From the NCBI RefSeq assembly GCF_003334355.1, contig NZ_QOWP01000082.1: a DNA stretch of 1,672 nt. One strand, 5' to 3'. Positions 1 to 1,672 of this stretch are shown piece after piece. Every line of letters starts with the position of its first letter. Position 1 is the stretch's first letter. A program made the position numbers and the translations under genes. Source of the DNA: Escherichia coli (GTDB lineage: Bacteria > Pseudomonadota > Gammaproteobacteria > Enterobacterales > Enterobacteriaceae). The notes beneath the pieces were generated by a model. The model ran no database searches. It saw nothing but the letters and a program-made list of their open reading frames with translations, and was not told where the DNA came from.

Positions 1-54
1 TTGTCTGTAATCGGGGATAATAGAAATATGTTCCATCAATTTTTTAAGTTCCAT
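1..54 (-). CDS. ISAs1-family transposase (H-repeat-associated protein, ORF-H), N-terminal 18 codons only; CDS continues beyond the left edge (5' end in window, 3' partial).
   Basis: Minus strand reads TAAGGAGAACAAA ATG GAA CTT AAA AAA TTG ATG GAA CAT ATT TCT ATT ATC CCC GAT TAC AGA CAA = MELKKLMEHISIIPDYRQ. This matches the N-terminus of E. coli H-repeat / ISAs1-type transposases (YhhI/YdcC/YbfD-like) as I remember them. Consensus SD AAGGAG sits 6 nt upstream. H-repeats are classically found next to Rhs elements. Too short to appear in the ORF track. Confidence 0.65.
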   Translation of the reverse strand, partial: MELKKLMEHISIIPDYRQ

Positions 55-161: not shown

Positions 162-545
162 TTAGTGCAAAAAGTGAACTTTTGATGATCTTTCCCTGGC
201 CGTTGACTTGATTGCCGTAGCTCGAACGCAAGCACTCTTATCATTCAATGCCATATTGTTCAAAATATTAAAAACATTATCTTCGCATTTTTTGCAAATT
301 TATATTTGCCCGAGTATAAATGCTCCGATATCTCTACGGATATAATTTTTGTCAGTGCAGAATTCAATTGCCAATCTAACAGCGTCTTGCCCCCCTCTTA
401 ACTGTAATACTCTGGCAGATGAAATCCTTTTCAAGGAATTGCGATCATCAAGTAAGCGAAATAATTCATCATCATTTAGTTTCTTACATTTATTATATAA
501 ACCATACTCTTTACTTGCCTTTCTTTTCTGGTATGTATTTGACAT
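162..545 (-). pseudogene. yibA: yibA-like HEAT-repeat protein gene (Rhs-associated, putative orphan immunity gene), disrupted. The intact ORF 545->300 encodes only the N-terminal 81 aa; an in-frame TAA at 302..300 is followed by 45 more in-frame codons to a second stop at 164..162.
   Basis: Translation MSNTYQKRKASKEYGLYNKCKKLNDDELFRLLDDRNSLKRISSARVLQLRGGQDAVRLAIEFCTDKNYIRRDIGAFILGQI* matches the N-terminus of E. coli YibA (about 280 aa, HEAT-repeat protein) as I remember it. After the TAA the same frame reads ICKKCEDNVFNILNNMALNDKSACVRATAI..., which continues the remembered YibA sequence (a Lys codon there in K-12), so the stop looks like a nonsense substitution. Strong SD GGAGG at 558..554, 8 nt upstream of ATG 545..543. 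The track ORF 300..560 starts at an ATG that overlaps the SD and is less likely the true start. Confidence 0.75.
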
Positions 546-553
546 TGCAGGAA

Positions 554-558
554 CCTCC
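554..558 (-). promoter_or_regulatory. Shine-Dalgarno (GGAGG) of the yibA-like ORF
   Basis: Plus-strand CCTCC at 554..558 is GGAGG on the minus strand; 8-nt spacer (TTCCTGCA) to the ATG at 545..543. Confidence 0.6.
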
Positions 559-649
559 ATAAAGGCTATCTTTTTCTATCGTTTGACTGTCTGGAGTCCT
601 CCACCTACTCTGCCATCAGCGCACACGATGTTTGATTATCCTTACATAC

Positions 650-1033
650 TTATTTTCCGTGGCCAAAATTCAGAATTCTCCCATCATTTTTGCCTATTTC
701 TATAATAAAAACCCCACCAGCAATTTGGTCTGAGTGAATGGTACCTTCAACAACCCAACTTGTTGTTAACTCAGTGATTTCGTATGGTTTTTCTTCTTCT
801 GCGGCATCCTGTCCATAACGATTCTTAACATATATCTCAGCTAATTCCAATGCTATAGCTTTATTTTTAACCAAATTTCTAACGGTATATTTACCTTCAC
901 TTTCATACTTGCGCATTATTTTAATATTATTATTACACTGCGCCCATGTGTTGTATGTAAAAACAAACAAAGATACAATGACACAGTTCCTAAACAATAT
1001 TTTTTTACATATTACCATGAACTCTGCAGACAT
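650..1033 (-). CDS. Putative Rhs immunity protein (RhsI-like), 127 aa, with predicted N-terminal Sec signal peptide. Alternative start at ATG 1018..1016.
   Basis: Six-frame ORF immediately downstream of the rhs CT, overlapping its last codons by 29 nt (1005..1033), which is the typical rhs/rhsI arrangement. AAAGGA Shine-Dalgarno at 1046..1041, 7 nt upstream of the ATG. N-terminus [31 protein letters not shown]|QC has a basic n-region, an 11-residue hydrophobic core and a T-W-A cleavage-like site. The mature part contains ...[19 protein letters not shown]...[16 protein letters not shown]..., which resembles small immunity-type proteins but is not assigned to a family. Confidence 0.7.
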
Positions 1034-1672
1034 TAGGTAATCCTTTTCTGTTTGTTATTTCCTTCCCGTGGTTATCTATTGCTTTAAAATTACCACTGGG
1101 CGTACCTAAATAAAATGACTTGATATTGTTATCTTTACTTTTAACTATTTTCTCATCTTTACCTGAAAATATTTCGTCCCAATATTCTCCATGACTATCT
1201 GCACCATGAGTATGATAAGCTGATACTTTCTCAGTACCATTAGGGCAAGGGCTATTGAATGGATATGATCCTTTTCTTTCTCCTCGGTTAGGTGCTGTTG
1301 AGAAATATCTGCCACTATTATCCTTACATATTAAACCAGCGAACTCTTTATCTTCGCAAATAGATTGGCTATTTATTTTATTTAAGGCGTCATATGCGGT
1401 GCTATCTATAGAATCAAATTTATCTGGACCTATCATAGCGGATAGTGTGCCGCAAAGACCATTAGTACATGCCCCCGATTTTGCATCCTCCCACATAGAT
1501 AAACCCAGGGGGTCGATGTCTGATATCGGATTCAATTGATATCCATACAGGTTCCATCCCCCCTTCAGCCCAATCGGATCCTGAGTGATATATCGCCCCT
1601 GCAGCGGGTCATAATAGCGGTGGCGGTTGTAATACAGGCCGGACTCCTCATCATACTGCTGCCCCGGCAGGC
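1005..1672 (-). CDS. Rhs-family polymorphic toxin, C-terminal portion (3' partial; CDS continues beyond the right edge). Conserved core end is followed by a 164-aa variable C-terminal toxin domain of unrecognised family.
   Basis: Minus-strand frame is open from 1670 to the TAA at 1007..1005. It translates to [57 protein letters not shown], then [18 protein letters not shown]...NVCRVHGNM*. The YDPxxGRYxxxDPIGLxGGxNxYxY...PxxxxDPxGL pattern is the Rhs repeat-associated core end that demarcates the variable CT (DPLGL = 1514..1500). The ORF track starts this ORF at 1535 only because it reads a TTG Leu codon as a start; the frame is open upstream. GC is about 59% in 1561..1672 versus about 33% in 1021..1140 (counted by hand). 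Confidence 0.9.
1041..1046 (-). promoter_or_regulatory. Shine-Dalgarno (AAAGGA) for the putative immunity gene, embedded in the 3' end of the rhs coding sequence
   Basis: Plus-strand TCCTTT at 1041..1046 is AAAGGA on the minus strand, 7 nt upstream of the ATG at 1033..1031. Confidence 0.5.

Follow-up and report, generated by a model that had tools for sequence, protein, structure and literature searches.

Rhs and CDI cassettes consist of a core ending in DPxGL, a variable tip of low GC, and, directly downstream, a small immunity ORF, and displaced orphan copies of such modules are found in arrays (Poole et al. 2011, PMC3150448; Zhang et al. 2012, PMC3482391). In the classification of Zhang et al. 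(2012, PMC3482391), DUF4329 was named Tox-JAB-2, was defined by conserved E, H[ST]H, S, and D residues, and was paired with the immunity family Imm-NTF2-2, and the nuclease or RNase label that DUF4329 carries in the literature (PMC3482391 among the sources) is a prediction. A second described system that bears on such neighboring genes is that of the short-overlap coupled pairs (ATGA/TAATG; Huber et al. 2019, 2023), which are co-directional, with the downstream start inside the upstream gene and its Shine-Dalgarno (SD) sequence in the upstream coding sequence. For termination-reinitiation in E. coli, efficient pairs cluster at stop-to-start spacings of -8..+6, and re-initiation is nearly lost at about 20-38 nt, with 80-100% lost at 38 nt (PMC10666635).

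The rhsB-yhhH locus of Escherichia coli, which we analyzed in a stretch of 1,672 nt (the window), shares with the Rhs/CDI cassettes the layout of core, tip, and immunity ORF as well as the orphan copies, and shares with the coupled pairs the co-directional arrangement with an embedded start and SD. It differs from the former in that YhhH is predicted to be exported, which one would not expect with a toxin domain predicted as a nuclease, and from the latter in that its overlap is 29 nt instead of 1, 4, or 8 and in that no stoichiometric cytoplasmic complex is known to include RhsB and YhhH as subunits; among the other K-12 rhs loci, rhsC-ybfB does have the canonical -1 TAATG junction. K-12 MG1655 has the same locus with the same -29 overlap, the window coming from a slightly different E. 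coli strain. The paralogous rhsD-ybbC module resembles rhsB-yhhH in its toxin tip (52% identity, the HTH..S..D motif and the conserved Cys being shared) and in its immunity protein (48% identical, with predicted N-terminal export signals in both). However, its two genes lie 39 nt apart with a free-standing AAGGAG as SD, and YbbC carries a lipobox-like LFAC, whereas YhhH has a predicted signal peptidase I site.

Genes and domains of the locus

The window covers the rhsB-yhhH-yrhC-yhhI region of E. coli (99.8% identical), and the best-matching complete genome, that of strain EC-129, differs from it at 3 of 1672 bases, with 0 differences near the junction (Table 1). In the K-12 MG1655 reference annotation, rhsB (b3482) occupies 3619192..3623427 and yhhH (b3483) 3623399..3623782, which gives an overlap of -29; RefSeq annotates this overlap alike in EC-129 and MG1655, and the pair is given as -29 in the E. 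coli gene-spacing supplement of Huber et al. 2023 (PMC10666635). Because it stands in both the RefSeq K-12 annotation and a published spacing table, the overlap was already on record.

The upstream ORF matches NCBIfam RHS_core (E=2e-30) and Rhs_assc_core (E=5e-21) over its residues 1-57, with both matches ending at residue 57, and the GC content is 0.56 in the Rhs core versus 0.37 in the toxin tip. The PF14220 match (135 bits) extends over model positions 2-114 of 116, and the Tox-JAB-2 residues E, H[ST]H, S, and D are present in the rhsB tip within CEDKE, AYHTHG, and FSGKD, in columns that are invariant across four homologues (RhsB, RhsD, and the L005 and L007 homologues). The PF15631 match of YhhH spans the full model (1-68), residues Y68, Y73, and W93 are invariant in 9/9 immunity sequences, and yhhH adjoins a Tox-JAB-2 toxin gene, as members of its family are expected to. 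The RHS_core, PF14220, and PF15631 matches thereby bear out the preliminary description of this DNA, which had named an rhs toxin tip and a predicted immunity gene from the letters and open reading frames, and we infer an immunity function for YhhH in a putative pair with the rhsB tip. PDB sequence searches returned no relative for the rhsB toxin tip or for YhhH, Rfam gave no match at E<=1, and the searched literature held no neutralisation experiment for YhhH against the RhsB tip. The gene yhhH is nearly absent from that literature.

Table 1. Features of the rhsB-yhhH region, in window positions
Feature	Positions	Strand	Details and basis
rhsB 3' end	1005..1672	minus	runs off the window at 1672; stop TAA 1007..1005; translation, RefSeq annotation
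PxxxxDPxGL motif	1500..1529	minus	marks end of Rhs core and start of variable toxin tip; from translation
DUF4329 / Tox-JAB-2 toxin domain	1047..1403	minus	Pfam PF14220, E=1.1e-39, residues 90-208
H-T-H motif of toxin domain	1214..1206	minus	S-G-K-D further downstream
TAA in yhhH frame	1055..1057	minus	closes the yhhH ORF upstream
SD AAAGGA of yhhH	1041..1046	minus	rhsB codons Lys-Gly; duplex with 16S 3' end -5.4 kcal/mol, 5 bp
ATG1, annotated yhhH start	1031..1033	minus	29-nt overlap; spans rhsB codons AAT GTC
Overlap read in two frames	1005..1033	minus	rhsB frame: ..N V C R V H G N M *
ATG2, yhhH codon 6, in frame	1016..1018	minus	15 nt downstream of ATG1; 14-nt overlap
ATG-TAA start-stop	1005..1010	minus	last sense codon and stop of rhsB
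A7 homopolymer	1000..1006	minus	begins within the rhsB stop codon
yhhH coding sequence	650..1033	minus	127 codons and stop; ORF, annotation
Predicted Sec signal peptide	941..1033	minus	residues 1-31, ..NTWA then QC; hydropathy, -3/-1 rule
Imm-NTF2-2 (YbbC/YhhH) domain	653..856	minus	Pfam PF15631, E=3.4e-26, residues 60-127
yrhC, yibA-like HEAT-repeat pseudogene fragment	300..545	minus	nonsense TAA 302..300; NCBIfam PRK09687 from ORF residue 6, annotation; SD duplex of ATG 545 -10 kcal/mol
yhhI start (ISEc1 transposase)	1..54	minus	runs off the window; annotation; SD -9.2 kcal/mol

The 29-nt overlap and its conservation

In rhsB codons, the junction reads AAC AGA AAA GGA TTA CCT AAT GTC TGC AGA GTT CAT GGT AAT ATG TAA AAAAA on the minus strand, with yhhH in the +1 frame relative to rhsB. 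Direct reading of this strand reproduced every position given in the preliminary description exactly (AAAGGA, ATG 1033..1031, ATG 1018..1016, and TAA 1007..1005), and likewise its overlaps of 29 nt from ATG1 and 14 nt from ATG2 and its placement of the immunity SD inside the toxin coding sequence, AAAGGA being the rhsB codons AAA GGA. The SD is separated from ATG1 by a 7-nt spacer, TTACCTA; ATG1 lies 26 nt and ATG2 11 nt upstream of the rhsB stop codon, and the AUG-UAA start-stop that ends rhsB sits 8 and 23 nt downstream of the two in-frame yhhH AUGs. As TAA 1057..1055 lies in the yhhH frame, ATG 1033 is the first ATG of the ORF and there is no start further 5'.

The junction was compared across seven lineages, namely the window itself, a frameshifted orphan copy in the rhsA-locus array (L002, 88% identical DNA), an immunity variant with 83% identity (L019/20), a Salmonella orphan module (L005/6), and three metagenomic lineages (L007-9, L010, and L011) whose immunity proteins are 65-72% identical. 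Immunity identity among the seven lineages ranges from 65 to 88%, and the junction geometry recurs: AAAGGA, the 7-nt spacer, ATG1, and the position of the toxin TAA are each kept in 7/7 lineages, and ATG2 in 6/7, the triplet being ATA in L007-9. The ATG-TAA start-stop is present in just 5/7 lineages (L019 has ACG-TAA) and is thus not essential to the cassette. Within the species, we found the 75-nt junction in 2714 of 5426 complete E. coli genomes, in identical form in 2329 of those, and three junction variants that we inspected leave the SD, ATG1, and ATG2 untouched. In one genome, the homopolymer just past the rhsB stop is A8 and not A7, and yhhH is without annotation there. A profile search of genome contigs with the nine-sequence immunity alignment returned four loci only (two E. 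coli-identical contigs in unrelated MAGs, one ybbC-like locus, and one from E. albertii), which added no information on junction geometry.

An equally good SD at -20..-3 is found for 18% of all positions on the purine-rich minus strand, so that the SD alone is not beyond chance. Judged from the alignments, the conservation of the junction, unlike the strength of its SD, exceeds chance. Where the three full-length toxins agree on the amino acid, the codons are also DNA-identical in 8/9 cases within the last 15 codons, compared with 50/99 over the remaining toxin domain (Fisher p=0.027), and the synonymous-informative sites GGA (Gly, 4-fold degenerate) and AAT (Asn), the only two that are truly informative, are invariant in 7/7 lineages. 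This synonymous signal is modest, the lineages being few and related, and the conservation of the SD and ATG1 is confounded by the conserved toxin tail KGLPNVCR[VI]H, which the same bases encode, so that for the most part it carries no information on the immunity start. Overall, the rhsB-yhhH overlap is real, conserved, already known, and ordinary.

Start codon and translation of yhhH

Upon comparing the possible starts, we obtained the most favorable values for ATG 1033. Duplex energies with the anti-SD were -5.4 kcal/mol for ATG1, -2.4 for ATG2, -2.8 for TTG 997, and +0.9 for Met40, and a crude estimate that adds up the energies of the SD, the start codon, and opening was best for ATG1 (-0.5, compared with +3.2 for ATG2 and +1.0 for the ATG at +23). 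Because ATG1 is kept in 7/7 lineages while ATG2 is ATA in one of them, ATG 1033 is the best-supported candidate for the yhhH start. It is improbable that the start is mis-annotated and that translation instead begins at ATG 1018, with a 14-nt overlap and the first five codons outside the protein: ATG2 would leave a shorter and more typical n-region of the signal peptide (MVICKK), lies nearer to the rhsB stop, and is found in 6/7 lineages, but its SD is weak, its crude initiation score is the worst among the candidates, and in L007-9 the immunity ORF is intact beside an intact DUF4329 ORF although ATG2 is ATA and no alternative start lies ahead of the hydrophobic core. Further downstream, exclusive initiation at the internal Met40, which the preliminary description had named as what would speak against its start, is countered by the unconserved Met40, by its duplex energy of +0.9 kcal/mol, and by signal-like N-termini throughout the family. 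We rejected Met40 (Leu in P0072, without SD, and with loss of the signal peptide) as well as TTG 997, which is not conserved and has no SD. Shorter database forms of YhhH (122 aa from Met6 and 115 aa from TTG) are genes cut by contig ends and not start variants.

Published initiation data bear on the same choice. INRI-seq (PMC9825163) profiles initiation complexes formed in vitro on synthetic E. coli 5' regions, and its table of non-annotated sites (Table S3), the part of the data set that concerns alternative starts, lists for yhhH an out-of-frame ATG at +23 with 89 CPM in 4/5 replicates, for which the in vivo Ribo-RET signal is 0. This site corresponds to window 1010..1008, which is the final sense codon of rhsB and has TAA directly after it. 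ATG2 (+15) is not among the non-annotated in vitro sites of that table, which argues against ATG 1018 as the start, since a site 8 nt away was called. Table S2 of the same source lists the ybbC start as detected both in vitro and in vivo (PMC9825163). Ribo-RET gave no signal at the yhhH junction, and the TRAINSPOTTER N-terminomics data contain no entry for yhhH, rhsB, or ybbC.

We suggest, with a probability of roughly 0.6, that yhhH is translated by SD-driven de novo initiation at ATG 1033 on a shared rhsB-yhhH mRNA, that its product is exported, and that the overlap is inherited and doubly constrained. Translation of yhhH would begin from its own SD (AAAGGA with the 7-nt spacer) within the Lys-Gly codons of the toxin tail. 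A scan for promoters and terminators found none upstream of yhhH on the minus strand or between the genes, and since no promoter-like or terminator-like site separates them, rhsB and yhhH would probably be carried on one mRNA. Ribosomes would load de novo at this moderately strong site, which RNA structure does not appear to hide, and immunity protein could be made in larger amounts than the 1411-codon toxin and without strict dependence on it, with input from ribosomes terminating at the rhsB stop secondary at most. The junction would then work like any operon-internal ribosome-binding site (RBS) embedded in an upstream coding sequence. Orphan copies without a toxin still retain the RBS, with ~52-58 nt kept ahead of ATG1. 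Likewise, the overlap itself may be an inherited trait of one cassette lineage under double constraint, with no requirement by the toxin/immunity pair. Against this reading, the in vitro peak on record for the junction in the INRI-seq table of non-annotated sites lies at the out-of-frame +23 position and not at ATG1.

The preliminary description had proposed translational coupling that ensures immunity whenever the toxin is made, and for this part of it we found no support, given a spacing outside -8..+6, an RBS that is not sequestered, and the 39-nt spacing of rhsD-ybbC. Under such coupling, yhhH would be translated mainly by ribosomes fresh from rhsB, either by re-initiation after TAA 1007..1005 or by melting of structure over the RBS. 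The two genes do run in one direction and overlap, no terminator or promoter is predicted between them, the overlap geometry is kept in 7/7 lineages, and in the L002 orphan a deletion has joined the toxin tail in frame to an upstream ORF, leaving translation to cross the yhhH start as before. We nevertheless consider coupling unlikely as the main source of YhhH. In its re-initiation form, ribosomes would have to move back 8-23 nt to an ATG, and the stop-to-start distances of -29 (ATG1) and -14 (ATG2) lie outside the -8..+6 range of termination-reinitiation; this distance argument is an extrapolation, because the published tests moved the stop only upstream of the start and left the backward direction unmeasured. 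Re-initiation alone would, moreover, cap immunity at no more than the stoichiometry of the toxin, and in the orphan L010, which lacks a toxin, a stop codon lies 50 nt ahead of ATG1. As for unfolding, the SD has a pairing partner in the minimum-energy fold, GGUAAUUUU at 1094..1086, but the 121-nt fold (-18.7 kcal/mol, z=-0.63) is no better than that of shuffled sequence, opening -20..+9 would take 6.1 kcal/mol, which is the median for the strand, and the partner of the SD shows no compensatory change in the 88%-identical orphan copy L002. We therefore rejected this SD-sequestering hairpin as non-significant and not covarying, and found no stable structure over the yhhH SD and start of the kind on which coupling by RNA unfolding would act, although coupling is known for some pairs without predicted structure (review PMC12548453). 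The paralogous rhsD-ybbC module, with its 39-nt spacer and own AAGGAG, also speaks against coupling, and the K-12 rhs junctions as a set, at +20 (rhsA-yibA), -29 (rhsB-yhhH), -1 (rhsC-ybfB, TAATG), and +39 (rhsD-ybbC), differ from one another, so that spacing is not a shared design. Coupling as the main mechanism is thus not supported by anything that we computed.

The same variation in spacing would suit a neutral overlap, in which the C-terminal tail of the toxin was extended over a pre-existing immunity start and is kept only by the double protein constraint. The tail motif GL..VC...H is conserved also in RhsD, where nothing overlaps, and in the L002 orphan the overlap bases diverge faster than their surroundings (9/29 differ versus ~12% overall). 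Yet the synonymous sites at the junction are more conserved than the rest of the toxin, and we see only a slim chance that the overlap is purely neutral, a reading that is otherwise largely compatible with de novo initiation at ATG 1033 and differs from it only in denying selective value. A very small likelihood attaches to the idea that the 29-nt overlap serves as a small initiation hub, in which ribosomes terminating on or captured at the AUG-UAA would feed or compete with yhhH initiation and thereby set the ratio of immunity to toxin or the choice between two signal-peptide isoforms. Finally, a +1 frameshift in the overlap could yield an RhsB-YhhH fusion protein, as yhhH lies in the +1 frame of rhsB and an SD-like element just upstream is superficially like that of prfB. 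We regard this as next to negligible: the overlap has neither a slippery nor a hungry codon, an in-frame stop is missing where one would be needed, a fusion would bury the signal peptide internally, and no fused RhsB-YhhH protein was found among database relatives.

Predicted export of YhhH and the site of toxin action

By hydropathy and the -3/-1 rule, the N-terminus of YhhH has a KK n-region and an 11-residue hydrophobic core (KD 2.4) followed by TWA then Q, and orthologues have predicted cleavage sites at NGWA then NG and NGWA then DS. Since conservation does not extend to the Cys that follows the cleavage site, YhhH would not be a lipoprotein; it may instead be exported with a Sec signal peptide. 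The earlier claim that either ATG leaves an N-terminal signal peptide holds at the level of prediction. A signal-like hydrophobic segment is found at the N-terminus of 98/110 full-length distant relatives in a library of 1.8 billion proteins, which makes a start downstream of this segment implausible.

The toxin tips of RhsB and RhsD have five invariant cysteines in common, possibly with a sixth in the C-terminal tail. On sequence grounds, an immunity protein predicted to be exported together with a Cys-rich toxin suggests a periplasmic toxin target, with which both fit better than with the nuclease or RNase label.

The toxin and immunity families were assigned already in 2012. What the junction offers is a clean and conserved case in which two same-strand genes overlap by more than is usual and upstream codons contain the downstream SD, and it could serve as a test case for the backward reach of termination-reinitiation in E. 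coli. The by-products of the analysis, a predicted-exported immunity protein and a Cys-rich toxin, are of more practical interest than the overlap itself, and the nuclease or RNase label of the RhsB and RhsD DUF4329 tips may be wrong.

The overlap between rhsB and yhhH

We found that two independent orphan yhhH-like copies, one in an rhsA-locus array (L002) and one metagenomic (L010), retain only ~52-58 nt of toxin tail upstream of the annotated yhhH start. In both, the remnant is just the FKAIDN..KGLPNVC tail together with the Shine-Dalgarno sequence (SD). A pentapeptide-repeat ORF appears to be joined in frame to this tail in L002, and in L010 the stop codon of the preceding gene adjoins it.

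Within the overlap, INRI-seq in vitro placed an initiation peak exactly on the rhsB-terminal ATG, at the out-of-frame position yhhH +23 (89 CPM, 4/5 replicates), with no in vivo signal there. As junction comparison revealed GTA in its place in L002 and ACG in the 83%-identical immunity variant (L019/20), the rhsB-terminal ATG is not kept universally. The A7 run at the junction reads A8 in one complete genome, Iso00270 (L027), where yhhH is unannotated; the extra A could reflect a genuine frameshift, or else a sequencing error in the homopolymer.

Features at and around the rhsB-yhhH junction
Feature	Location	Strand	Remark
A7 run	window 1000..1006	(-)	begins within rhsB stop codon; spans yhhH codons 10-12
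ATG-TAA start-stop at rhsB end	window 1005..1010	(-)	mid-overlap with yhhH
yibA-like HEAT-repeat immunity-type gene	window 300..560	(-)	N-terminal third, K-12 pseudogene yrhC; next ORF after yhhH
YhhH predicted Sec-type signal peptide	window 941..1033	(-)	from sequence
Orphan yhhH-like copies	L002 2722..3087; L010 823..876

Gene neighbors and relatives of yhhH

The true start of the yibA-like ORF (yrhC) is the ATG at 545, preceded by a strong GGAGG SD, rather than the ATG at 560. A nonsense codon (AAA to TAA) at 302..300 breaks this ORF, and yibA-like homology extends past it up to the ISEc1 element (yhhI, start 54..52). Since the orphan locus L002 carries an intact yibA at the identical 104-nt spacing from yhhH, yhhH and yibA travel together.

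The Rhs core has a GC content of 0.56, and this falls to 0.37 across the toxin tip and to 0.33 in yhhH (window 1005..1672 versus 650..1033), the usual mark of a horizontally exchanged tip/immunity cassette. One E. coli genome (L021 1..1884) has a chimeric gene directly downstream of an rhsC-type toxin tip, the two meeting at a TAATG -1 junction. The N-terminus of this chimera, which we take to be that of K-12 YbfB, joins the mature YhhH part at ..LWAQC; compared by eye, the latter agrees with the window sequence, and the chimera looks like a recombination within the signal-peptide region. A genome-contig search also returned contigs (L012, L013) that match E. coli yhhH at 100% identity and sit in public MAGs labelled Flavobacterium psychrophilum and Lachnospiraceae bacterium, probably through binning contamination.

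Predicted export of YhhH and a possible periplasmic toxin target

Among the distant Imm-NTF2-2-like proteins (P0109-P0251), 98 of the 110 full-length members have a signal-like N-terminus, lipobox-like in 26 of those 98. Five Cys residues are invariant between the DUF4329 tips of RhsB (window 1047..1403, minus strand) and RhsD, and their C-terminal tail may hold a sixth. Together with the predicted signal peptide of YhhH, these features point to a periplasmic toxin target. Such a target conflicts with the nuclease/RNase prediction for DUF4329 tips that is often restated in the literature.
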